Assembly: GCA_964480345.1 (NCBI GenBank)
Contig: CAYZNW010000001.1
Span: forward strand, 82,137 to 146,136
Length of the DNA stretch: 64,000 bases
Direction: 5' to 3'
Source of the DNA: an uncultured Candidatus Saccharibacteria bacterium
GTDB lineage: Bacteria; Patescibacteriota; Dojkabacteria; SC72
In this document: positions 4,226-57,768 of the stretch, one piece after another
Layout of the letters: each line of letters starts with the position of its first letter
How positions within the stretch are numbered: position 1 is the first letter of the stretch
The notes under the pieces: model-generated
What the model was told of the DNA's origin: nothing
Seen by the model: the letters and a program-made list of their open reading frames with translations, nothing else
Databases searched by the model: none
Made by a program: the position numbers and the translations under genes

Positions 4226-7200
4226 ATGCTAAAACCTAAAAGAAACAGATCTGGAAGGCTAAATCTTGGCCTTGACTATTCCAGAGAATTAAATTTCCCT
4301 AATTTAATTGAAGCACAGATAACTTCTTTTGAGAGTTTCAAAAATAATGGATTCCAAAATCTATTTGCTGAAATCAATCCTGTAAAGGATACGATGGAGA
4401 GAATGTGGACTTTGGAGTTTAAGAATTTTAGATACGGTGACCCATACAGAAGTATAGAAGAAGCAATCAGAAAAGGTTTGTCATATGAGATTCCTGTGTA
4501 TGCAACAGTACAGTTAATGAATAACAAGACAGGAGAGATTAAAGAGCAGGAGATTTTCATAACTGATCTTCCATGTATGACTGATGATGGTGTATTTGTC
4601 TTTAATGGTGTAAGAAGAGTTGTAACTCATCAAATTGTTAGAGCTGAAGGTGTTTTGTATGAAGAATCAGACAAACTTCCAACTAGAACCATATACAAAG
4701 TTAGATTGATGCCAGAGAAAGGGCCATGGTATGAGATTGATACAAACAGACATAATGTCATAGCTATGAGAATCCTTCCAAAGAGACCTAAGGTTTTGAT
4801 TACAGAATTACTCAGAGTGTTTGGTTGGGAAAGTGATGACGAGATAAAGAAGCTATTTGCAGATGTTGATACACATGAAGAGAATAAATATATTGAAGCA
4901 ACATTAGCTAGAGATTTCTCTAAAAACAAGGAAGAAGCAGTAATTAGTATTTACAACAAATTAAGACCAGATGAATCAGTAACTTTAGAGAGTGCTGAGA
5001 GGTATATCAAGAGTAACTTCTTTAATGCTAGAAAATTTAATTTAGGTAGAATTGGTAGATATCAGTTAAATAGAAAGCTAGGAACTCAGTATGATATTAA
5101 CAACAACAGTGAAAACGTCCTCTATCCAAATGATATTGTTCTAACAGTTAAGAGATTGATTCAGATAAATAATGGAGATGTAGAACCTGATGATATTGAT
5201 CACCTATGTAACAGAAGAATTAGAAGTGTAGGTGAAATTATTGAGAGACAGCTTAATGGAGCAGTAAGAAGATTAGAGAAAAATATTAAAGACAAGATGA
5301 GTTTGTACGGTCAAGATGCAAAGGTTACTCCTTCTATGCTTGTAAGTACTAAACCAATTTCTGCATCAATTCAGTCTTTCTTCGGTGCAAATGCACTTTC
5401 TAGCTTCATGGATCAGGAGAATATTCTGTCTGAGTTAGAAAACAAGAGAAAGGTTACTGCTGGAGGTCCAGGTGGAATTGCAAAAGAGAGAGCTACCTTC
5501 TCTATTAGAGAGGTTCATAACTCTCACTACTCTAAATTTGACCCAGTAACAAGTCCAGAGAGTGCAAATATTGGTGTTGTTACTCAGTTAGCTATGTTAG
5601 CTAGAATTAATGAATTTGGTTTTCTTGAGGCTCCGTACAGAAAAGTTTACCATGTAGTAAAAAACAGTAAAAAGGATCTTGTTAACAGAATTCTTTCAAA
5701 AGATTTGAAGGTTGGAAAGAGTGTAATAGCTAAAGCCAGAACAAAAATAGATGAGAAGTTAGCAGAGAAGATTGTAAAGGAGAAATCAATCAAAGAGATT
5801 CATGTAAAGCCATTTATATCCGACGATATGGAGTATTTGGATGCTATGGATGAGGAGAAATATCAGATCTCATCTGCTACTGTTAAAAAAGATGAATTTG
5901 GTAATATCCTTGATACTCTACTTCCAGTTAGATACAAAGGAGATTTCTCTTTAGAAGATTCTAAAGTAGTTACTCATATTGATGCTATCGCAAGTCAGCA
6001 AGCAGGACTTGGTATGTCATTGATTCCATTTGTGTCACATAACGAAGCTATGAGAGCATTAGTTGGAGCTAACCAGCAAAGACAAGCAGTTCCTTTAGTA
6101 AAACAGGAAGCTCCTCTTGTTGGAACTGGAATGGAAGAGGTTGTTGCACACCAATCTTCTTGGGGGATTTTTGCAGAAGAGGATGGAGAAGTTCTTGCTT
6201 CAGATGGAAAGACAATGTCTGTTAAATATACAAAATCAGGAGTTAGAGAGTACAAGTTGACAGCATTTTACAGAAGTAACGCTAACACATCTTTCACTCA
6301 GAAACCTGTTCTAACAGTTGGAGACAAATTCAAGAAAGGTGATGTTTTGGTGGATGGTGCAAGTATGGTAAATGGAGAGTTTGCTGCTGGTACAAATCTA
6401 AGAGCAGCACTCATGTTCTATGAAGGATATAACTATGAAGACTCCGTAATCATTTCAGATAGAGTTGTTAAAGAAGATCTTTTGACATCTATCCATGTCA
6501 GAGAGTATGCAGTAGATATTCGAGATACAGAGCTAGGTCCAGAGGTAATCACAGCTGATATCCCACATGTTAATGATAGAATTCTACATAAACTAGATGA
6601 GATAGGAATTGTTAGATCTGGAGTCAGAGTAAAATCAGGTGATATTTTGGTAGGAGTTGTTGCTCCACGAGGAGAGAAAGAGCTTACAGCAGAGGAAAGA
6701 TTACTAAGAGCAATCTTTGGAGAATCAGCAAGTGATGTTAGAGATAACTCTTTGAGAATTCCTCACGGAGAAGAAGGAATCGTCATAAGGAGCCAGATGC
6801 TCTCAACAGATAAAGGAGACAAATTACCTCCAGGTGTTCTTCATCAAGTAAAAGTATGGGTCGCAAATACAAAGAAAATTGGATTCGGAGACAAGATTTC
6901 TGGAAGACACGGAGACAAGAATACAATTGCAGCTATTAGACCTATTGAAGATATGCCTTTCACAGAAGATGGAGTTCCTGTAGATATTGTCTTAACTCCA
7001 ACTTTCCTAAAAAGAATGAATATGGGACAGGCAGAGGAGGTTCACTTTGGAAGATTTGCTGAAATTTTGAATGAGAAATTTGCTTTCCCTATTTTCGAAG
7101 GAGAGAATTTAGAGTGGTTGACAGAAGAGCTAAAGAAAAAAGGTGTAACACCAGAGCAGAAAGTAGATTTGTATGATGGTAGAACTGGTGAGAAGTTCCC

Positions 7201-10600: not shown

Positions 10601-11477
10601 AGAGCTTTTTGAAGCTAGAACTCCAAAAGCGGAAGCAGAGCTTACCTCTGTAAATGGTAAAGTCCATATTGATGTTGCAGAAGATGAATCAGCTACAATC
10701 ATTATCACAGGAGACAAACAGTTTACTAAATACTATGTAGTATCCAAAGCTAAGAATATTCTTGTAGAAGATGGACAGGATGTAAAATCTTCACAAGTTA
10801 TGTTCATAGATGAATATGAAAATGAGAAACAAGCTCCATTTGATGGAAAGATAAGTATTGAAGGAGGGATATTAACTATAATAGGTAGTATGAAAGCAGA
10901 GGAAACAATCTCAGTATTACCAGGCATTAATATTCTTGTAGAAGATGGAAGTACAGTTAAAGCTGGAACACAATTAACAGAAGGATCTCTTGATCCTAAG
11001 AAACTAGCAGATGTTGCAGGTATTTCAGTTGCACAGAAATACATATTAGATGAAGTGCAGAAAGTATTTAATGAACAGGGTGTCTCTATAGATGATATTC
11101 ATATTGAAATAATATTGAGACAGATGGTCAGATTAGGCAAAGTTATAGATACAGGAGATTCTAGTTACCTAGTAGGTTCTTTGGTAAATAGATTTATGGC
11201 TGATGAGAAGAACAAGGTCTTGGTAGCAGAAGGAAAGAACAAAGCATTAGTTCTTCCTACACTGTTTGGTATTAAGACATCATCTCTTAACACTGAGAGT
11301 TTCCTTTCATCTATCTCTTTCCAAGAGCAGGTAAGAGTTCTTACAAATGCTGCTATACTAGGTAAGACAGACTATCTAAGAGGTATGAAAGAGAATGTCA
11401 TAATTGGAAGACCTATACCTGTAGGAGATGGAGCTGAAATAAAAGATGTAACATCTCTAGAAGAGTTTAAAAATTAG
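7590..11477 (+). CDS. rpoC: DNA-directed RNA polymerase subunit beta'
   Basis: Zn-finger CxxC...CxxC at the N-terminus, the NADFDGDQM catalytic loop, and the trigger loop/bridge helix region. The ORF-track start at 7590 has a GGAGG 9 nt upstream but overlaps rpoB by 17 nt. An alternative ATG at 7617 (MGDFDVLK) removes the overlap. Confidence 0.96.
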   Translation: MMKRNNKTKMGDFDVLKITLASPDEILDWSYGEVTKAETINYRTFRAEPDGLFCEKIFGPTKNYECYCGKYKKIRYKGIVCDKCGVEVTSQDVRRERMGHIELAIPVAHVWYAYGIPNKMSIVLDIPHKKILSVIYYTRYMVVSADTEQREATIVKARDLKEVEVKELHNELEEELKATTDTFDAEMKEEKKAKKKGKEFKVSQLEHKRNQALAKVRKDYAEREEEIEVFYSKIIQILEKLEVGTVLSEDEYSDLADRDLLFFEAMMGAEAIEKLLENLDLNEEIAKLRQKLSNEKGEKRLASIRRMQYLEGFLKNDIKPSWMVIKTLPVLPPELRPIIPLSGGKFATSDLNDLYRRIINRNNRLKKLIEIGAPDVILRNEKRMLQESVDSLIDNSHRPSKAMMNSKRLPYQSLTDDLRGKKGIFRKNLLGKRVDYSGRAVIDGDPSLKFDQCGLPKSIALEMFKPFVIYQLLDRELAPNVRVAKDLLEEESDVIWDILEDVIRNKPVLLNRAPTLHKYSVQAFYPRLVEGEAIRIHPLVCKAFNADFDGDQMAVHILLTDEAVEEAKKEMMSSLNIVNISNGQVLASPAREMLIGYYMMTDLSERKSPKIFPTENSAVKAYERGNITIDEEIVVKAKGEVLHTSVGRVIFNSILPEKYPFINKQIDVKAVKNIIDDIKNNEEISELVRILDDLKLLGFKYSTDLGFSFAMEDCNVDFDLESEIKKMEQKDEQLQENYLQGLMTKKEKINISTNMWDDFSTELADKAWEKLDKHNSIFQMVDSGGNGGKIQARQVLTIKGVVRDSRGNWVAMPIKSNYRDGLSAFEYFVAANGGRKGVADRSLKTSSSGYLTRKLVDVAHDVIIREEDCGYDGEGLPVRRADDRRIDFKDRIYGRVLAQDVVLGKEVVAKKNEMISPEVAELIDSKGIDEIFVRTPLLCESPLGMCKKCYGLNLENNKEIDMGRAVGVIAAQSIGEPGTQMTMQTFHKGGVQKVDITQGLPRVEELFEARTPKAEAELTSVNGKVHIDVAEDESATIIITGDKQFTKYYVVSKAKNILVEDGQDVKSSQVMFIDEYENEKQAPFDGKISIEGGILTIIGSMKAEETISVLPGINILVEDGSTVKAGTQLTEGSLDPKKLADVAGISVAQKYILDEVQKVFNEQGVSIDDIHIEIILRQMVRLGKVIDTGDSSYLVGSLVNRFMADEKNKVLVAEGKNKALVLPTLFGIKTSSLNTESFLSSISFQEQVRVLTNAAILGKTDYLRGMKENVIIGRPIPVGDGAEIKDVTSLEEFKN

Positions 11478-14240: not shown

Positions 14241-14295
14241 TTGACAGTAGGAAAACCATACCATATACTTAGCAGATAATCTTATTCTCTGCTAA
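14241..14295 (+). promoter_or_regulatory. Sigma70-like promoter (TTGACA-N17-TATACT) overlapped by CIRCE-like HrcA operator TTAGCAGAT-N9-CTCTGCTAA
   Basis: TTGACA at 14241-14246 and TATACT at 14264-14269. A 9-N9-9 inverted repeat spans 14269-14295 (8/9 complementary). It resembles the CIRCE consensus TTAGCACTC-N9-GAGTGCTAA and sits immediately before the hrcA ATG (14297). Confidence 0.6.
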
Positions 14296-17520: not shown

Positions 17521-19869
17521 ATGCTAACATCTATCGATAATAATATATTTACCTGCCCAATTATGTCAGAAGATCAAAAAGAGAACCTATCAGATAGTTC
17601 GAAAATTAGTAGGATACAAAGATATTTACTGTATATCTTAGCTTTCATATTACCTCTCGCAATTATTCCACTCCCTTGGGATTGGAACGAAATTCCTATG
17701 TCTTTATGTATCCTCTCATTTACTGTAGTTATTTTAGCTCTTGAGATTGTTAAACTAGTGAAGAGTGGGAAGATTACAATACTTAAATCATCTCTAGATT
17801 TATCTGTCTTTTTACTTCTCTCCTCATATATCCTATCTACACTTTTTTCTAAAGATATAAATAGTAGCTTATGGGGAGTAGATCATAGATTAGGAAACGG
17901 TTTAATACTATTTATTGCAATAATAGCGTTGGCTTTTCTTGCTAGATCTTTCATAAGAGACCTACGACATATTAAAATGTTTTTCTTCTCTTTCACAATA
18001 GGGCTTTTGATAGACAATATCCTTAGTATGCTTGCTTTCTTCGATATCAATATCTGGTCGATTCTTCCTGTATATAAAGATATGTTCCAAGAAGGATTGC
18101 CTGTATTAAGATCTGCAAAAATATATATTCTTACAAATGCAACCAGTCTTCTAATGGCTTTCGGCTTCATAGGAGAGTACATAATCTCAAAAGGTAAAAA
18201 GAGTGTGATGTTGATCTCATTACTTACGGCCTTACTATCTGCTATTGGCATTGTTATGTTCTCAATAGTACAAGGTACAGGTTTAGTAATATTCTTCTTG
18301 TTACTCTTCGTTGGCATGAATATATTTGTAGTAACAAAATTCAAACTATCTCCTGGCTCATACAAAAACATTTTGGTACTATTCTTACTTACTACATTAG
18401 CAATCACTATTCCGTTTGCCTTGCTTCATATTCCATCATTAAGAGAGAACTGGATACCTGAAGATATCAAACTTGTAGGCCAGGTCTTTCTTGGTGTAGA
18501 TCTATCTTGGGCTATAGCTTCATCTGTATTTGTTAATTCCATACAATCAGCATTTTTAGGATTTGGAGTAGACACATACTCTATTGCATACAATATGTTT
18601 AAACCTGTAACTACTACTCTCTTGCCTTACAACACAGTAACTTTCTACAGTGCAGGAAGTGAAATATTTACGAATTTTACTAATGGAGGATTGTTCTGGC
18701 TTTTCTGCTGGGGTTTCCTAGGTTATTCCGTAGTTAGATCTCTGATTAATGATTTTAAGAAATTGAAACTAAGTACAGACAAAGTGAATACTTGGTATCT
18801 GTTAATATCTGATTCCATAATTGTACTGATTTTTGGATCCTCTCTCTTTACATCATTCTCTGTAATAAATGTCTTACTTCTGATTCTGATGATCTCAGTT
18901 AGAGGAATTCTAAAAGACATACTAAGTGACGGAAAAGAAGAGAAATTCGTCTTTAAATTATGGGCAGGGAATGTATCTACATCTGTTGAAGAAAAAAACA
19001 AATTTAGAAATACATACATAATACTGTATGTTCTAATCATGTTTGTTACCTTATTCTTCTTAAGAATATGGGTTTGGAAGTTAGTATCAAATATGTATAT
19101 GTTAAGAGCAGAGGCATACTACTCTGTAGAGAAAGATAAGATAGAGAATCCTAAAGTGTCGTATGAGGAGAAAGAAGCAATTGCAGATAGAATGATTTCT
19201 TACTATATAAATGCTGTTAAATATGATGAGAAGAATCCACATGCTCATAGAAAGCTCGCCATGATGTATATGGATAAAGTTAATGTTGGAGTAAGGAAGT
19301 ATCTTTCTGTAGCAGAGAATCAAAGAGATTCTAAATTAGCTAATGATATAAACAAGCTAAAAAATTACGCTATAGATTCTTCGAAGAAGAGTTCCGACTT
19401 CTCTGAAAATATTTATGCAAACTGGGAAGCTAGAACTAATGTATATATGGGCCTTGTAGGGGTAGGTTACAATGATTTCATACAAGACAGTATCAACTCT
19501 ATAGAGAAAGCTGCATCTTTAAATCCTTCTAACTTTGAACTGTATTTTAGTGAAGCTCAGATGTACATCATAAATAAGGATAGAGATAGTGCGCTATCAT
19601 CACTTACAAAAGTATTAGGTATTAATCCTCAGTATATTCCTGGACTTCTTCTCTCTGCAGATTTAAATAAAGAAGCAGGTAGGTTAGATGTATATGAATC
19701 GTATTTACAAGCTGCCAAGAAAATATTAGAAACAAATAATGCTATGGATAGAGATATCTATACAGAGATAGTAAACAAACTTAAAGAATTAGAAAGTAAG
19801 TCTAATACTAATAATACAAATGAAAGTGTTAAAGAAGAAGTAACTAAGCCTAAGCAGAATCAGGAGTAG
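17521..19869 (+). CDS. Polytopic membrane protein, O-antigen ligase/polymerase-like (Wzy_C-like) with C-terminal TPR-like repeats
   Basis: About 12 predicted TM helices across the first 470 aa, then a soluble helical-repeat C-terminal region (Y/A/N-rich, TPR-like). The annotated ATG abuts the dnaK terminator T-run. The second ATG at 17563 (MSEDQKEN...) is the likelier start. Confidence 0.4.
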   Translation: MLTSIDNNIFTCPIMSEDQKENLSDSSKISRIQRYLLYILAFILPLAIIPLPWDWNEIPMSLCILSFTVVILALEIVKLVKSGKITILKSSLDLSVFLLLSSYILSTLFSKDINSSLWGVDHRLGNGLILFIAIIALAFLARSFIRDLRHIKMFFFSFTIGLLIDNILSMLAFFDINIWSILPVYKDMFQEGLPVLRSAKIYILTNATSLLMAFGFIGEYIISKGKKSVMLISLLTALLSAIGIVMFSIVQGTGLVIFFLLLFVGMNIFVVTKFKLSPGSYKNILVLFLLTTLAITIPFALLHIPSLRENWIPEDIKLVGQVFLGVDLSWAIASSVFVNSIQSAFLGFGVDTYSIAYNMFKPVTTTLLPYNTVTFYSAGSEIFTNFTNGGLFWLFCWGFLGYSVVRSLINDFKKLKLSTDKVNTWYLLISDSIIVLIFGSSLFTSFSVINVLLLILMISVRGILKDILSDGKEEKFVFKLWAGNVSTSVEEKNKFRNTYIILYVLIMFVTLFFLRIWVWKLVSNMYMLRAEAYYSVEKDKIENPKVSYEEKEAIADRMISYYINAVKYDEKNPHAHRKLAMMYMDKVNVGVRKYLSVAENQRDSKLANDINKLKNYAIDSSKKSSDFSENIYANWEARTNVYMGLVGVGYNDFIQDSINSIEKAASLNPSNFELYFSEAQMYIINKDRDSALSSLTKVLGINPQYIPGLLLSADLNKEAGRLDVYESYLQAAKKILETNNAMDRDIYTEIVNKLKELESKSNTNNTNESVKEEVTKPKQNQE

Positions 19870-23056: not shown

Positions 23057-23114
23057 TGCAAAAACCACATCTTCGATGATACAATACTTAGCAATTGTTA
23101 AATTGATTTGCTAG
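23057..23114 (+). promoter_or_regulatory. Sigma70-like promoter (TTGCAA-N17-TACAAT) followed by CIRCE-like inverted repeat TTAGCAATT-N9-ATTTGCTAG upstream of groES
   Basis: TTGCAA at 23057-23062 and TACAAT at 23080-23085. The imperfect 9-N9-9 inverted repeat (7/9 complementary) spans 23088-23114, ending 8 nt before the groES ATG. This is the classic groESL promoter-CIRCE architecture. Confidence 0.5.
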
Positions 23115-30597: not shown

Positions 30598-32193
30598 ATG
30601 AAGATTAGTTTTAGAAAAGATTTGAATATAGCGACGATAAGGTCTGAATCAGCATGGAATAAATTTAAAATACATACTCTCTTACAGAACGGTGAGAGGA
30701 AACAATCATCTATAAATGCATACCTGGGGGCTATGTATAGTCGTACCTCTGATTCTATATTAGATATTGCTTCTGAGATAGTTATACATAGTAGTAACCT
30801 TACTGAGAAGTTAGAAAAACTTCTATCAGAGTATCGACAAAAAGTTGTTGGAGATATGGCCAATTTATTTGTTTGTATTGAAGATATTCCAATATTGACA
30901 GCTATGAAGATTTTCTATTCCAATTCTTCATTAACTGGACAGGAAAGATCACCAAAATATCAAAGAGTTGATAAGTTTGAGTTTATTAAGATACCTCGAG
31001 AAGTTTGTGACAATACTGATGTCAGAAAAGAGTTTGAAAGGATTATGTTAAAACAGTTAGTTGATTACAAGGAGATGCTAAAACCTACAAGAGAGGAGTT
31101 AGCAAAACATTACTCTATTAATTTAGAGAGTTCTCATGAAAGTGCTTCATTGAAATCTAGAGTGTTTGATGTTGCAGGATATCTTCTTCCTGTAGGTTTA
31201 AATACAAATGTGTCTTACCTAATGTCTGCAAGAGATTGGTCTTCAGAAATATCATATCTGTTAGCAAGTGATTCTGTTGTAGATAATGAATTAGCAGACC
31301 TATTGATTAGCTTACTTGGCGAGGGTCGTTTAGAATTAAAGGGGTATATTAAAGAAGCAGATGGTTTGATAGGAGATGTAGATGCTAATTGTAATAGAAA
31401 GAATTCTACTGAAGAAGTCATTAACTATTTGAAGAAATATATTTCAACAGAACAGGCTAAGGATATTCCTGAGAGAGAGACAGAATCTATTTCCGTGACT
31501 TACTCGCCTGATTGTACTGAGACTTTGATTTCACATTATGAATCTTTAATTAATCCTTTAGGTTCAGCACATGAATTAGAATTTTCAGATGAGGATCAGG
31601 AGTATATTAGTGATATTCTGTTTGAGAGACATGATCATAATAATACGATAGGGAATATGGGGCAGTCTGGTGCTATCAAAATCTCAGGATTTGCATCTTT
31701 AAGGGTATTAAAATACCTAAATAGTTTTAGAAGTTTAGAACGATTTATTCCTTTGTTGCATGATAGTGTCGATATGAATCAAGAGTTAGATCGTAGAAAT
31801 GATCAATGTTTCTATCTTTGTACATATTTAAATATTCCTAGTATGTCTAAATTGAAGAAAGAGTATCAGAAGAGGTTAGAGGAAACATATGAAAGGATTA
31901 AAGCATGGAGAAAGTACGCTATGGATTTTATGTCAGAAGATTTAGTTGATGAATTTACCAAGTATCTTTTACCTCATGCTCACTCTACAAAGTATCTTAT
32001 GTATGGTTCTTTTGATGATCTACAATATTTGATAAATAACGGAATTCGAAATGGAGTACATATTGATTGTAGAGTTCTTCTTTATGAATGGTTACGATTG
32101 CTTTCATTGAAAGATCCTATATGGAGGTCGTTGCTTAAAAAAGTAATTACTCCGAAAGTAGATGATAAGTTTCAGTTTGTAGATAGAAGTTAA
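30598..32193 (+). CDS. Hypothetical 531-aa protein in the folD-glyA-dcd operon, possibly a divergent Thy1/ThyX-like fold
   Basis: Tightly coupled between glyA (13-nt gap) and dcd (20-nt gap). The segment LFVCIEDIPILTAMKIFYSNSSLTGQERSPKYQRV weakly resembles the ThyX block F.IEGVSR....RHR.AS.SQESQRY, but the RHR triad is not conserved. No other recognisable motif. Confidence 0.3.
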   Translation: MKISFRKDLNIATIRSESAWNKFKIHTLLQNGERKQSSINAYLGAMYSRTSDSILDIASEIVIHSSNLTEKLEKLLSEYRQKVVGDMANLFVCIEDIPILTAMKIFYSNSSLTGQERSPKYQRVDKFEFIKIPREVCDNTDVRKEFERIMLKQLVDYKEMLKPTREELAKHYSINLESSHESASLKSRVFDVAGYLLPVGLNTNVSYLMSARDWSSEISYLLASDSVVDNELADLLISLLGEGRLELKGYIKEADGLIGDVDANCNRKNSTEEVINYLKKYISTEQAKDIPERETESISVTYSPDCTETLISHYESLINPLGSAHELEFSDEDQEYISDILFERHDHNNTIGNMGQSGAIKISGFASLRVLKYLNSFRSLERFIPLLHDSVDMNQELDRRNDQCFYLCTYLNIPSMSKLKKEYQKRLEETYERIKAWRKYAMDFMSEDLVDEFTKYLLPHAHSTKYLMYGSFDDLQYLINNGIRNGVHIDCRVLLYEWLRLLSLKDPIWRSLLKKVITPKVDDKFQFVDRS

Positions 32194-32212: not shown

Positions 32213-32794
32213 ATGATACTTTCAGATATTACAATTAAGGAAAAATTAAAGAGTGGGGATATTGTTATAGAGCCTTTCTCTGAAGAGTTTTTGCAACCAG
32301 CTTCGTATGATCTTCATTTGGATAGGTATTTTATGGTGTTTAATAAGGAGAGTGTAGGATTAATAGATGTTAGAAAGAAATGTGAAAATTTAATGAGAGA
32401 GGTAGATATTGGTAAGGGTGGTTCATTTATAATTCATCCAGGAGAGCTTGTTCTTGCAAATGTTCAAGAGATTGTGGGAGTAGGAGATAAATATGTTGGT
32501 AGATTAGAGGGTAAGAGTTCACTTGGTAGGATAGGATTGATAGTTCATGCTACAGCAGGTTTCTTGGATCCAGGTAATAAGTTAAGGATGACTTTGGAGT
32601 TAGCAAATCTTTCTTCGTTACCAATTAAGATATATGAAGGGATGAAGATTTCTCAGATAGCTTTTGAAGAGTTGGATAAGGCTTGTGAGAGACCGTACGG
32701 TAGTAAAAGCTTAAATAGTAAATATATAGGGGATACCAAGGTTAAGGGTAGCCTAATATGGAAGAATTTCTACAAGAAGAAATCTACATCATAG
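32213..32794 (+). CDS. dcd: dCTP deaminase
   Basis: SYDLHLD, IIHPGELVLANVQE and GFLDPGNKLRMTLELAN blocks of Dcd/dUTPase-fold deaminases. Confidence 0.85.
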   Translation: MILSDITIKEKLKSGDIVIEPFSEEFLQPASYDLHLDRYFMVFNKESVGLIDVRKKCENLMREVDIGKGGSFIIHPGELVLANVQEIVGVGDKYVGRLEGKSSLGRIGLIVHATAGFLDPGNKLRMTLELANLSSLPIKIYEGMKISQIAFEELDKACERPYGSKSLNSKYIGDTKVKGSLIWKNFYKKKSTS

Positions 32795-33890
32795 GAGGAA
32801 CTTGTGGAAGTTCACTTGATGGAGTCTCATCTACTTTAGGTTCAATTGTTGGAGTACTTTCTGGTTGAGCAGGGATACTGTTGATTTCTCCATTAACTAA
32901 ATCTTGTAAGTCATTATGTTGTGTACTCTGTTCAGGAATAGTCGTATCTGGTTGTATCAATGTCTCTGTATCTATGTTTTGTGCTGGTACAGTACTCTCT
33001 TGTGGATTTAGGTAGTCAACTGCTACTTGAGGATTTAATCCTGCATCGACAGGAGGTTGGGCAACTTCAGCTGTAGGAGCCTGTTGCTCTTCTAACTTAA
33101 CTTCTTCAACTGGTTGAGTAATAGGTGTTGTTTCTACTACTGGTTCTTGTTGAATAGTTGGAGTTTCTGCAAGAGAAGGAGTTGGTTCAGCCTGTATAGG
33201 TGTATCTACAACAACAGGTTCTGGCATAATTTCTGCAGGTTGAGATACTGCAGGTTGTACTTCTTGAGAAAAGGTTTCTGGCATAACAGGAGCTACTGTA
33301 GCTTCTGCCTGTGGAGAAATTTGTCCTTGTTCTTGATTTACTATTTCAGCTAATGTTGGTTTAGCACCGTTTAAATTATCTTCTTTTGTTTCGTTGGTTA
33401 GATTGGCAGGAATATTGTTCATATTTATACCATCAGGTATTGCTACAGGAGGTGTAGCTTGTTCTGGAGTTACTTGTATAACTTCTTCTGTTCCCTTCTT
33501 CTTGTTACTTAAGAGAATACCGATGATACTAACTAGCAAGATAACTGAACCTGCTATTAATACATATGGTAGATAGTCCATATATGCTGTTGTCTTCTTA
33601 GTTGTAGTAGTGGTTGTTGTCGTAGAGGAAGTTGTTGTTGGTGTCGTAGTAGTGGTAGGTGTTGTCGTAGTCTTTTCTTCATTGGTAGTAGGAGTCTCTG
33701 TTGTAGTATCAGTGGTTTTTGTTGTCGTACTGTCTGTAGTTTTTGTTGTCGTGCTATCTGTAGTTGTTGTAGTATCACTATCTGCAACAGGAGTTGGTGT
33801 ACTTTCTAAGGATGTAGTTTGAGCAGATACAACTAAAGGAAAAGCGAGTAATATACTGAAAATAACAAAGGATTTTAATATTTTTTTCAT
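32784..33890 (-). CDS. Secreted/membrane mucin-like protein: signal peptide, Thr-rich repeat region, TM helix, P/Q/E-rich tail
   Basis: The signal peptide MKKILKSFVIFSILLAFPLVVSA is followed by TTTTDSTTTKTTDSTTTKTTDTTTETPTT...TTTTTTTT. A TM helix (LPYVLIAGSVILLVSIIGILL) comes next, then about 240 aa of low-complexity P/Q/E/T-rich sequence. Confidence 0.5.
   Translation of the reverse strand: MKKILKSFVIFSILLAFPLVVSAQTTSLESTPTPVADSDTTTTTDSTTTKTTDSTTTKTTDTTTETPTTNEEKTTTTPTTTTTPTTTSSTTTTTTTTKKTTAYMDYLPYVLIAGSVILLVSIIGILLSNKKKGTEEVIQVTPEQATPPVAIPDGINMNNIPANLTNETKEDNLNGAKPTLAEIVNQEQGQISPQAEATVAPVMPETFSQEVQPAVSQPAEIMPEPVVVDTPIQAEPTPSLAETPTIQQEPVVETTPITQPVEEVKLEEQQAPTAEVAQPPVDAGLNPQVAVDYLNPQESTVPAQNIDTETLIQPDTTIPEQSTQHNDLQDLVNGEINSIPAQPESTPTIEPKVDETPSSELPQVPPMM
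33608..33821 (-). repeat. Thr-codon low-complexity/tandem repeat tract within the mucin-like gene
   Basis: Runs of gttgttgt/gtcgtag with near-identical ~24-nt units at 33717-33764 (ttttgttgtcgtactgtctgtag / tttttgttgtcgtgctatctgtag) encode TTDSTTTK twice. This is a slippage-prone tract. Confidence 0.5.
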
Positions 33891-34025: not shown

Positions 34026-35246
34026 ATGAATTACCAAGACCTAAATATATTACAAAATGGAATTCCTTCAAATGATGGGGCTACCTCTTCTGTAGACGAA
34101 AATTTAAATGAAATATCTGAATTAGAAAAGAAATTACTAAACTCTTCCTCTCCTGATAGCTTAAAAGAAGAGGCCATGAGATCTATTACTAGATTGAAAA
34201 GAATGGCAAAGATGGGAGGATATAGTAGTGAATTTGAAAATGTTAATAAATATATTGATTGGATAGTAAGAATCCCTTGGGGAGTTATCTCTGATGATAA
34301 CTTGGATATTAACAATGCAAAGGTATTGATGGATAAGAGTCACTACGGAATGAATGATATTAAAGATTTGATTGTGAATTATCTAGCTACTATGCAATTA
34401 GAAAATGTCAAAGGTAATACAATAGGAGTTCAGCCTATGCCTACTCAATTTGGTACTGTATCTTTAGAACCTCAACAAGAAATCCCTGATATGGCTCTCT
34501 TGAAAGGCTCCTCTGCAAATGCTCCTGTTTTACTCTTTGTAGGTTTGCAAGGTGTTGGTAAAACCTCTATTGCAAAATCTATTGCTAATGCAATGAATAG
34601 GAAATTCGTAAGAGTATCCCTTGGTGCTATAGGAGACGTCAGAACTCTTCGTGGTACTCCAAGATATTCTATAGATGGAGAACCAGGTCAGATTATTAAA
34701 GCACTTATTAGATGTGGTACTATGAATCCTGTTATTCTTCTTGATGAGATTGAGAAATCTAGTGGTAACTCAGGGTTAATGAACGATGTTATGGCAACTC
34801 TTCTTGAGATTTTAGATCCAGAACAAAATTCTACCTTTATAGACCACTATATCGATTATCCTGTTGACTTATCTAAAGTATTCTTCATTTGTACAGCTAA
34901 TAATCTTGGTGGTTTGTCTGCTGCTTTACTTGATAGGGTTGAGGTTATTAGGTTTACAAGCTATACCGATGAGGAGAAGGAAGTTATTGCTAAGCAGTAT
35001 ATTCTTCCAAAAGTTTATGAGAATCTACATATATCTTCTGATCATGTAGTTATAGATGATGATGTTTGGCCAAGCTTGATTAGACCGGTTGGTTTTGATG
35101 CTGGTATTCGTCAGCTAGAGAGAAATATTGCAACTATGATGAGAAGTGCTGCAAGAATGATTGTTGAGAAGAGTCCTTTACCTATCAGAATAACTAAAGA
35201 GAATCTAAATCAATTTGTTCTTTCAGATCAAGGTCCTCTAAGCTAA
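34026..35246 (+). CDS. Stand-alone Lon-like AAA+ ATPase module (no LON N-domain, no S16 protease domain)
   Basis: KYIDWIVRIPWGVISDDNLDINNAKVLMDKSHYGMNDIKDLIVNYLA aligns to the Lon linker (YIDWLL.LPW...DL..A...LD.DHYGL..VKERILEYLAV). Walker A is VGLQGVGKTS, Walker B is VILLDEIEK, sensor-1 is TANN, the Arg finger is LLDRVEVIRF, and sensor-2 is GIRQLER. The ORF stops at ...ENLNQFVLSDQGPLS, exactly where the Lon protease domain would begin. Confidence 0.75.
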   Translation: MNYQDLNILQNGIPSNDGATSSVDENLNEISELEKKLLNSSSPDSLKEEAMRSITRLKRMAKMGGYSSEFENVNKYIDWIVRIPWGVISDDNLDINNAKVLMDKSHYGMNDIKDLIVNYLATMQLENVKGNTIGVQPMPTQFGTVSLEPQQEIPDMALLKGSSANAPVLLFVGLQGVGKTSIAKSIANAMNRKFVRVSLGAIGDVRTLRGTPRYSIDGEPGQIIKALIRCGTMNPVILLDEIEKSSGNSGLMNDVMATLLEILDPEQNSTFIDHYIDYPVDLSKVFFICTANNLGGLSAALLDRVEVIRFTSYTDEEKEVIAKQYILPKVYENLHISSDHVVIDDDVWPSLIRPVGFDAGIRQLERNIATMMRSAARMIVEKSPLPIRITKENLNQFVLSDQGPLS

Positions 35247-35485
35247 TATCCTTTGAATGGGTTCGAAAGTCTCAGAGCAGAAACTGCTACTTTAATCTGT
35301 GGCTCTTTTATTCCTTTTGCAATATTAGCCTTATACATACTTTTATCTTCTGCTTTCTGTAGAAGATTTAAATCATCTTTTTTCTCTTCAGTAGATATAG
35401 TGCTAGTATCAATTGCTTGTGTAACTAAGTAGTTTTCCTCTTTTATTGTATTTTTAATATCTTGGTTGTTGTTCATTCTCTTCAC
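35243..35485 (-). CDS. Small hypothetical protein (80 aa) at the distal end of the VirB4-like operon
   Basis: An ORF overlapping the 3' end of the VirB4-like gene by 32 nt. No TM helix and no motif, so it may be spurious. Confidence 0.2.
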   Translation of the reverse strand: MKRMNNNQDIKNTIKEENYLVTQAIDTSTISTEEKKDDLNLLQKAEDKSMYKANIAKGIKEPQIKVAVSALRLSNPFKGY

Positions 35486-57741: not shown

Positions 57742-57768
57742 GTAGCAATTGCGATGAAACTCTGCTAG
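57742..57768 (+). promoter_or_regulatory. CIRCE-like inverted repeat GTAGCAATT-N9-CTCTGCTAG upstream of dnaJ
   Basis: A 9-N9-9 inverted repeat 12 nt before the dnaJ ATG. The right half CTCTGCTAG matches the hrcA site right half (CTCTGCTAA) at 8/9. The left half matches the groES site left half at 8/9. Confidence 0.45.

Follow-up and report, generated by a model that had tools for sequence, protein, structure and literature searches.

Lon is the textbook fusion of an ATPase with a protease, and reviews hold that all Lons contain both, and define Lon by a single polypeptide in which the A domain precedes the P domain (PMC9569914). In LonA of Meiothermus taiwanensis, the substrate is gripped by Tyr397 of pore loop 1 and Trp431 of pore loop 2, both of which are needed for degradation, and Arg484 contacts the ATP of the neighbouring subunit, supported by Asp444-Pro445-Glu446 (PMC8503904). 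In LonC of M. taiwanensis, a naturally occurring derivative of Lon, one of the coupled activities was given up (PMC3391209, PMC13069640); LonC combines chaperone and protease function without ATPase activity (PMC13069640). In this study, a gene was analyzed that is located at positions 34026-35246 (plus strand) of a 64,000-nucleotide stretch of a Dojkabacteria genome (contig CAYZNW010000001.1; the whole stretch is referred to as the window). Its product represents the mirror image of LonC: LonC keeps the protease and loses the ATPase, whereas the short protein described here keeps the ATPase residues and loses the protease. A natural protease-less Lon was not found described in the literature searched, nor were any papers found on Lon in Dojkabacteria or on Lon protease in Patescibacteria. 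Judged from its sequence, the protein is read here, with a probability of roughly 0.6, as a functional stand-alone ATPase derived from LonA that would form rings and act as a non-proteolytic remodeller. The gene and its parts are arranged as follows:

34026-35246, plus strand: complete, stand-alone gene for a Lon-type AAA+ ATPase of 406 amino acids (aa); ATG start, TAA stop at 35244-35246
34026-34097, plus strand: N-terminal stretch (aa 1-24), weakly conserved, outside the TIGR00763 match and without resemblance to the Lon N-domain
34098-34403, plus strand: helical bundle (aa 25-126; YIDWIVRIPW ... HYGMNDIKDLIVNYLA), counterpart of the LonA-specific helical domain located just in front of the AAA+ module
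34404-34514, plus strand: P/Q/S/T-rich insert (aa 127-163), family-specific and of variable length, a gap in all full-length Lons aligned
34515-34958, plus strand: AAA+ α/β domain (aa 164-311), with Pfam AAA (PF00004) at aa 169-311
34542-34565, plus strand: Walker A, GLQGVGKT (aa 173-180, with Lys179), where canonical Lon has GPPGVGKT
34647-34688, plus strand: equivalent of pore loop 1, LRGTPRYSIDGEPG (aa 208-221), where Lon has IRGHRRTY[IV]GAMPG; the Tyr-Ile/Val pair is lost
34743-34748, plus strand: Walker B Asp240-Glu241 (ILLDEIEK), invariant in 19 sequences, short and full-length
34899-34901, plus strand: sensor-1 Asn292 (CTANN), invariant in the 19-sequence alignment
34935-34937, plus strand: arginine finger Arg304 (LLDRVE), equivalent to Arg484 of M. 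taiwanensis LonA; Arg in 47/47 short forms and 20/20 full-length Lons
34959-35219, plus strand: Lon-type lid (α) domain (aa 312-398), with Pfam Lon_lid (PF22667) at aa 335-383
35109-35111, plus strand: sensor-2 Arg362 (GIRQLER); G360 and R362 invariant in the 19-sequence alignment
35220-35243, plus strand: conserved C-terminal tail (aa 399-406, ...LSDQGPLS), located where the Lon protease domain would start

The upstream extension of the open reading frame (ORF) is closed by an in-frame stop codon, and the distance to the start of a divergent gene is 135 bp. In a monomeric AlphaFold2 (AF2) model (predicted local distance difference test score, pLDDT, of 71; predicted template modelling score, pTM, of 0.66), the protein consists of the helical bundle, the α/β domain and the lid. 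The bundle was modelled as helices with pLDDT values of 73-93, and disorder was predicted for residues 1-18 and 129-166 (pLDDT <50 in both cases), the latter covering the region of the 37-aa insert, as well as for residues 402-406.

A preliminary description of this locus had recognized the protein as the central part of Lon, and this assignment was confirmed by Pfam, NCBIfam and PDB searches as well as by structural comparison. The NCBIfam model TIGR00763 ('lon', endopeptidase La) matched with E=1e-100 over profile positions 250-568 of 795 only, with a score of 338 bits lying under the equivalog cutoff of 608 bits. The top PDB sequence matches were all LonA (B. subtilis 3m6a, yeast PIM1, Meiothermus and human LONP1), with alignments falling into two blocks (aa 27-126 and aa 163-398); ClpB, ClpA and ClpC followed as the next AAA+ families, approximately 60 orders of magnitude weaker. 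The best 50 matches of the AF2 model in a Foldseek search against PDB were likewise all LonA. By this placement in the Lon clade, an identity as a RuvB- or ClpX-type AAA+ protein is excluded. With LonA (MEROPS S16; B. subtilis 3m6a, M. taiwanensis LonA and human LONP1), the protein has in common the AAA+ α/β domain, the lid and the helical bundle, at 31-36% identity in the Foldseek alignments, together with Walker A and B, sensor 1, the arginine finger, sensor 2 and the 'LDPEQN' motif of the pre-sensor-1 β-hairpin (PS1βH). The short family differs from LonA by the lack of the LON_substr_bdg and S16 domains, by GLQGVGKT instead of GPPGVGKT, by the loss of the pore-loop aromatics, by the disordered insert and the DQGPLS C-terminus, and by its separate clustering in the tree described below.

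The absence of a substrate-binding N-domain and of a protease domain, as well as the end of the protein at the AAA+/S16 boundary, also agreed with the initial annotation. Neither Lon_C nor LON_substr_bdg (PF02190) was matched in a Pfam search of the 406-aa protein. Alignment with five full-length Lons placed the start at the helical bundle downstream of the N-domain in Lon, and the end within a few residues of the point where Lon continues into '...GLAWTxxGG...KDGPSAG'. The LonA-specific helical domain is present in its C-terminal part only (aa 25-126, aligning to TIGR00763 from position 250 and to residues 7-103 of 3m6a). Six-frame translation of the 64-kb window revealed no S16 Ser motif, and tblastn searches with S16 domains (n = 15) and N-terminal regions of Lon (n = 15) yielded no match in it, so that the claim of an S16-free window was retained.

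A protein of this kind could also result if a canonical lon gene had been cut short through a frameshift, a faulty assembly or a recent deletion, and an end point at a domain boundary does not discriminate by itself. An artefact or pseudogene is nevertheless extremely improbable. An independent assembly from another sequencing run (Logan SRR15237809) carries the identical protein, and its contig agrees with the window across all 3,221 nt compared, stop codon included. The gene contains no homopolymer runs of 6 or more, and nothing Lon-like, S16 domain included, is encoded in any plus-strand frame of the 600 nt downstream; a frameshift or assembly error at the 3' end, which the preliminary description had named for checking, was thus not found. 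Moreover, the tail DQGPLS followed by the stop codon occurs at the same position in the window gene and in 8/8 orthologous loci, as well as in the tails of two further family members (P0121 and P0122). The tail reads DQG[PT]LS in 15 fetched family members, and D401, Q402, G403, L405 and S406 are invariant across 32 sequences.

Purifying selection reaches the stop codon of the gene. In the codon-level comparison of the window gene with the eight orthologous loci, in which synonymous differences were saturated (pS 0.65-0.75), the ratio of nonsynonymous to synonymous differences (pN/pS) was 0.08-0.24 for the AAA core (aa 164-311), 0.21-0.48 for the lid (aa 312-398) and 0.18-0.33 for the last 21 codons (aa 386-406). 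The corresponding values were 0.19-0.42 for the helical bundle (aa 25-126), 0.31-0.88 for the first 60 residues (aa 1-60) and 0.51-1.10, i.e., nearly neutral, for the insert (aa 127-163). The proposed comparison of orthologous loci therefore revealed a common architecture, a conserved stop and a tail under purifying selection.

The same architecture is seen in >120 close relatives and in dozens of distant ones, which further argues against a damaged gene. The best 120 matches in a database of 5.8 billion proteins were all 365-425 aa long (66-100% identity), and featured AAA and Lon_lid, with Lon_C in none of them. Their names include 'AAA family ATPase [Candidatus Dojkabacteria]' (NCBI) and 'ATP-dependent Lon protease' (JGI), and several are encoded on contigs of 670-760 kb, representing essentially whole genomes of the candidate phyla radiation (CPR). 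Length and end point are conserved in >150 relatives. In a search of 1.84 billion cluster representatives, the Dojkabacteria proteins collapsed to two or three representatives, followed by more short proteins at 42-51% identity, after which ordinary Lons of approximately 800 aa dominated. Some relatives end at the lid but carry long N-terminal regions without a Pfam match, or a C-terminal extension that is not S16. None of the curated Pfam and NCBIfam models is specific to the short family.

To assess the distribution, one genome per GTDB species was scanned with a profile of the short family, and the 50 best loci were classified. Complete short ORFs (344-472 aa, no S16 motif) were found at 33 loci, and one more locus (L039) represents the short type cut by a contig end. 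Full-length Lons accounted for 15 loci (762-832 aa, with GPPGxGKTS and S16; RGHRRTY[IV]G was scored in 12/15), and one 495-aa ORF of canonical type (L050) was ambiguous. The records of the short form are labelled Dojkabacteria, WWE3, Shapiro-, Levy-, Davies- and Roizmanbacteria or 'Patescibacteria group'. Further labels, namely 'uncultured Gammaproteobacteria', 'Pseudomonadales' and 'Candidatus Saccharibacteria', originate from third-party metagenome-assembled genomes. These labels are judged unreliable and are probably wrong, because the sequences nest in Dojkabacteria, WWE3 and Microgenomates clades, with a GC content of 33-46% and CPR-type synteny. Records with odd labels are L009, L010, L018, L022-L024, L026-L029, L032, L034, L036, L041 and L043.

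In a neighbour-joining tree (297 shared columns, 47 short forms and 20 full-length Lons, 100 bootstraps), the full-length Lons clustered apart from all 47 short forms in 99/100 bootstraps. This cluster took in the single full-length CPR Lon of the tree (L049, Roizmanbacteria). The core of Dojkabacteria sequences ending in DQGPLS was recovered in 100/100 bootstraps. None of the recurrent neighbours of the short form is common to the full-length lon genes of CPR genomes, and positional orthology between the two was rejected for this reason. Given the separation in the tree, the unshared neighbours and the breadth of the family, the short forms represent an old separate lineage rather than repeated recent truncations, and by the same evidence this lineage extends across a large part of the CPR/Patescibacteria, comprising Dojkabacteria, WWE3 and Microgenomates-type groups.

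The same data bear on the idea that the short protein serves as a modulator of Lon, co-assembling or competing with a full-length paralogue to give mixed rings of altered activity. At the level of the candidate phylum, both forms occur in Roizmanbacteria and Levybacteria (short forms L025, L038 and L040; full-length Lons or S16 fragments L049, P0287 and P0359), and the ATPase residues acting between subunits are all common to the short form and Lon. However, an identity of 40-50% and a bootstrap separation of approximately 99% speak for long independent evolution, linkage to lon genes was not seen, and a subunit without the protease domain would lack the main interface of the Lon ring. Modulation of Lon is therefore considered unlikely.

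As to the full-length lon genes of CPR bacteria themselves, two were found split by frameshifts into two to four ORFs (L087, positions 4421-6831, Microgenomates OLB22; L088, positions 4449-6609). In both, a fragment with N-domain and AAA is followed immediately downstream, on the same strand, by a fragment with lid and S16, a pattern that the window gene does not show. The lon gene of L087 lies directly downstream of a suf operon (sufC-sufB-sufD-sufS-nifU-ferredoxin), and the sizes of the upstream ORFs at the intact Roizmanbacteria lon (L049) suggest the same suf layout.

The residues of the ATPase site are kept throughout the family. In the 19-sequence alignment, G173, G176, G178, K179 and T180 of Walker A are invariant, as are D264 and P265 in the base loop of the PS1βH (LDPEQN). 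In the larger set of short forms, Lys179, Arg304 and Asp264 occur in 47/47 and Pro265 in 45/47. Positions 2-3 of Walker A are L/V/I and Q/V/A in the short forms, as opposed to Pro-Pro in 20/20 full-length Lons. The pore loops, in contrast, are remodelled: the Tyr-[IV] pair of pore loop 1 occurs in 20/20 full-length Lons but in 0/47 short forms. Among the short forms, the Tyr site is most often occupied by Ser (14), Glu (7), Phe (7) and His (4); a Tyr occurs at the aligned site in one of them, followed by Pro, and the residue after this site is Pro in 22/47. The aromatic residue of pore loop 2 is replaced by Ala, Ser, Gly or Thr, and the remodelled loop closes with a conserved acidic motif, [DE][AS]EPG. 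In the clade of the window gene, a Tyr is found one position earlier (PRY-SID), where close relatives have His, Phe or Gln. Engineered Lon AAA+ fragments (E. coli 6n2i, 344 aa; α-subdomains 1qzm, 1x37 and 4git), which cover the equivalent of aa 165-397, show that the module folds autonomously; they differ from the short family in being laboratory truncations of the protease with canonical pore loops retained.

From these features, the following course is proposed. A LonA-type ancestor would have lost its N-terminal substrate-binding domain and its C-terminal S16 protease domain. As the arginine finger and the base loop of the PS1βH work across subunit interfaces, the short protein most likely forms Lon-like rings in which ATP is hydrolysed. 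Threading and degradation of substrates are most likely not among its activities, because a proteolytic chamber and the canonical gripping residues are missing. More likely, ATP-driven conformational changes would serve to remodel a partner, either a protein or a ribonucleoprotein, or to release it, in the manner of a chaperone and without a protease. Such a role has precedent in that Lon proteins are reported to have chaperone and DNA-binding activities independent of the protease (PMC9657610), and in the chaperone function of LonC. The parts of this reading differ in strength: judged from conservation, it is very probable that the protein is a conserved functional stand-alone ATPase, and a non-threading remodeller is proposed with much less confidence. 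Of the two options offered in the preliminary description, a stand-alone unfoldase or remodeller and a domain-precise truncation, both hold in part, as the gene is a domain-precise reduction and also a member of an old, selected family; the term 'unfoldase' is doubtful, because the substrate-gripping pore-loop residues of Lon are not conserved.

Several points weigh against the remodeller. Lon protease domains supply much of the hexamer interface, and ring assembly without them is therefore not guaranteed. The ATPase activity and the oligomeric state of the short protein are inferred from its sequence, and the AF2 model is monomeric and only moderately confident (pLDDT 71). The earlier aromatic residue (PRY-S), together with the seven Phe and the one Tyr at the aligned site, would leave some threading possible. 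It is also possible that a trans-acting S16 protease or a canonical Lon is encoded elsewhere in the Dojkabacteria genome.

This last point leads to a split Lon, in which the ATPase would act in trans with a separately encoded peptidase ring, of the S16 or another type, onto which the conserved C-terminal tail docks. HslU and ClpX, which belong to the same broad AAA+ clade (HCLR), are likewise ATPases of similar size that form polypeptides of their own, and docking via C-terminal tails is established for HslU-HslV and PAN/Mpa-20S. By analogy, the tail of the short family, which is strongly conserved, predicted to be disordered and reminiscent of the docking tail of HslU, could have such a function. 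Many Microgenomates-type members end in an aromatic residue, often as ...LP[ST][YW] (…LPTW, …LPTY, …LPSY, …NYY, …QMY and …EAY; seen in L021, L022, L024, L026, L028, L032, P0139 and P0148), and the clade-specific tails are possibly docking motifs. The short family differs from HslU and ClpX, however, in its scores (ClpA 35 bits versus Lon 338 bits, with no HslU match among those listed) and in having no identified partner peptidase, no aromatic pore loop and no IGF-type loop.

No partner was found next to the gene either. tblastn with the S16 and N-domains against 684 kb of flanking sequence (±10 kb around 41 loci, including two near-duplicate pairs) gave nothing below E=0.005, whereas in the positive control every query matched all 15 full-length loci. 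The sole marginal S16-like match (locus L019, positions 11023-11232, minus strand; E=0.005, 30% identity over 82 aa) may be a Lon-like domain of the RadA/ComM type or a chance match. An adjacent split S16 gene was accordingly rejected for the ±10 kb around the 41 loci, and these flanks contained no other recurrent peptidase gene. A protein search with a CPR S16 domain, which is biased toward fragments, returned only matches of fragment length, none of them labelled Dojkabacteria, and carries little weight. Given the flanks free of peptidase genes and the degenerate state of the loops through which a protease would be fed, a split Lon is improbable.

The genomic context points to a housekeeping setting for the non-proteolytic ATPase. 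The window represents core chromosome, with ftsK, rpoB, rpoC, hrcA-grpE-dnaK, groES-groEL, folD, glyA, a thyX-like gene, dcd, lepA, alaS, dnaJ, nusA and infB. When the flanking ORFs of 38 short-form loci were clustered, three clade-specific arrangements were obtained, with no universal neighbour gene and no recurrent peptidase across the 38 loci. In Dojkabacteria, the order is folD-glyA-thyX-dcd-(variable gene)-LonAAA, followed by a convergent ORF of 74-87 aa and VirB4-like, TraC-like and PrgI-like genes. The head-on orientation relative to an operon resembling a type IV secretion system (T4SS), noted at the outset, was verified, with VirB4/TraG-like, TraC-like and PrgI-like genes on the minus strand. 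Neighbouring features of the window are:

30598-32193, plus strand: ThyX-like protein of 531 aa, with Pfam Thy1 covering aa 64-216 only; of the same length in other Dojkabacteria
32784-33890, minus strand: Thr/Pro/Ser/Gln-rich protein of 368 aa with an N-terminal signal-like segment, one hydrophobic span and no family match
35243-35485, minus strand: ORF of 80 aa at the distal end of the T4SS-like cluster, without Pfam or PHROG match; its stop overlaps that of the Lon-AAA gene by 4 nt

The 74-87-aa ORF with the same stop overlap is kept in position in six Dojkabacteria loci. The 368-aa gene fills the variable slot upstream of the Lon-AAA gene, which is occupied by a 413-aa unannotated gene in L001 and by a co-oriented Aminotran_5 gene (SufS/NifS-like) in L003.

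The T4SS-like cluster raises the possibility of an accessory ATPase for the adjoining VirB4/TraC/PrgI system. In all nine core Dojkabacteria loci, the gene adjoins this cluster; it is, however, convergent rather than co-oriented with it. The adjacency is missing in L005, L006 and all WWE3 and Microgenomates loci, every clade outside Dojkabacteria lacks it, and a region of approximately 20 kb is collinear within Dojkabacteria as a whole, including unrelated folate, nucleotide and translation genes. Since the adjacency is lost in other clades, the convergence reflects Dojkabacteria synteny and not a functional link, and a role as a T4SS ATPase is very unlikely.

In WWE3 and some Microgenomates (40-46% identity), the gene is part of a one-strand block, rpsO-(378-aa unknown)-pnp-LonAAA-(udg)-rnj-ftsK (L016, L018-L022, L024, L025, L027, L028, L032, L033 and L036). 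An upstream PNPase gene was found in 11 loci and a downstream RNase J gene likewise in 11, with both in nine; gaps measure 2-154 bp in six, the smallest being 2-50 bp. The block resembles an operon and connects the short Lon ATPase with genes of RNA decay. A more specific proposal would be an ATPase of RNA decay or ribonucleoproteins that works with PNPase and RNase J and, for example, remodels RNA-protein complexes or basic RNA-binding proteins via its acidic pore. Besides the conserved block, a pore loop rich in Asp/Glu ([DE][AS]EPG) and the DNA binding reported for Lon (PMC9657610) are in line with it, as is the title of PDB entry 6n2i, 'DNA-binding ATP-dependent protease La'. On the other hand, the pnp/rnj association is absent in Dojkabacteria, the window included, and in the clade with adjacent groESL; compact CPR genomes preserve housekeeping order for non-functional reasons; and an acidic pore speaks against direct threading of nucleic acids. 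This proposal is doubtful, although for the remodeller the pnp/rnj context and the acidic pore point to basic RNA-binding proteins or ribonucleoprotein complexes as partners, which is only a lead.

The third arrangement, with groEL-groES divergent from the Lon-AAA gene, was found in seven other Microgenomates loci (L023, L029, L030, L034, L038, L040 and L041). The distance from groES to the Lon-AAA gene is approximately 60-160 bp in 6/7 of these; in L023, groES lies in an N-masked stretch. In three more Microgenomates loci, groESL is located 3-5 kb away.

Regulation together with these chaperones was also considered. The canonical CIRCE element (controlling inverted repeat of chaperone expression; TTAGCACTC-N9-GAGTGCTAA) is absent from the window, even at 3 mismatches. 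A divergent CIRCE-like repeat, TAGCA-N15-TGCTA (e.g., TTAGCAGAT-N9-CTCTGCTAA), occurs in the window in exactly three perfect copies, each directly upstream of a chaperone operon:

14270-14294: CIRCE-like repeat upstream of hrcA-grpE-dnaK
23089-23113: CIRCE-like repeat upstream of groES-groEL
57743-57767: CIRCE-like repeat upstream of dnaJ

Upstream of the Lon-AAA gene, TAGCA-N15-TGCTA was found neither in the window nor in 33 homologous loci, the groES-divergent ones included. The gene is thus placed outside a recognisable HrcA/CIRCE heat-shock regulon, and regulation by HrcA/CIRCE was rejected. Promoter- and terminator-like matches near the gene were weak or at chance level. Several upstream regions of the groES-divergent type end in TTTTGTCAA, a possible -35 box.

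Four further large ORFs of the window had no Pfam match at E<=1e-4:

17521-19869, plus strand: ORF of 782 aa
45489-47270, minus strand: ORF of 593 aa
53036-55480, minus strand: ORF of 814 aa
61854-63281, plus strand: ORF of 475 aa

With regard to other described systems, DolB of the Dodola defence system (PADLOC) matched weakly over the AAA+ core (E=4e-12, 44 bits). This score is far under that of the Lon match, and the short family has housekeeping neighbours and no recurrent defence partner. An assignment to a defence-system or phage family was rejected, as the DolB match is weak and the PHROG match is itself Lon-like. A different rearrangement of the Lon module was observed in P0123 (1113 aa, Candidatus Dependentiae, MFC1854773.1; three Lon_lid matches) and P0125 (1675 aa), in which three tandem Lon-type AAA+ modules are followed by a single S16 domain. 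Several other matches of 900-1400 aa with 4-6 matched stretches may share this tandem AAA+ design.

The family shows the converse of LonC, the protease being lost, the motor kept under strong selection and the pore rebuilt, and it is found widely among CPR bacteria, a group in which little is understood of proteostasis. Reconstructions of CPR genomes may credit these organisms with Lon proteolysis that the short protein cannot perform, because JGI pipelines label such proteins 'ATP-dependent Lon protease'. A tentative and rather unlikely extension is that in Dojkabacteria, and perhaps in much of a Microgenomates/WWE3/Dojkabacteria super-clade, the short protein might be the only Lon descendant, a non-proteolytic AAA+ machine that would have replaced canonical ATP-dependent Lon proteolysis long ago. 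If true, it would constitute a mechanistically new class of remodeller derived from Lon, its pore acidic and free of aromatics, with basic RNA-binding or ribosomal proteins as possible targets and with PNPase and RNase J as possible partners. In any case, the family offers a natural system for asking what a protease-free Lon AAA+ ring does, and whether such a ring assembles.

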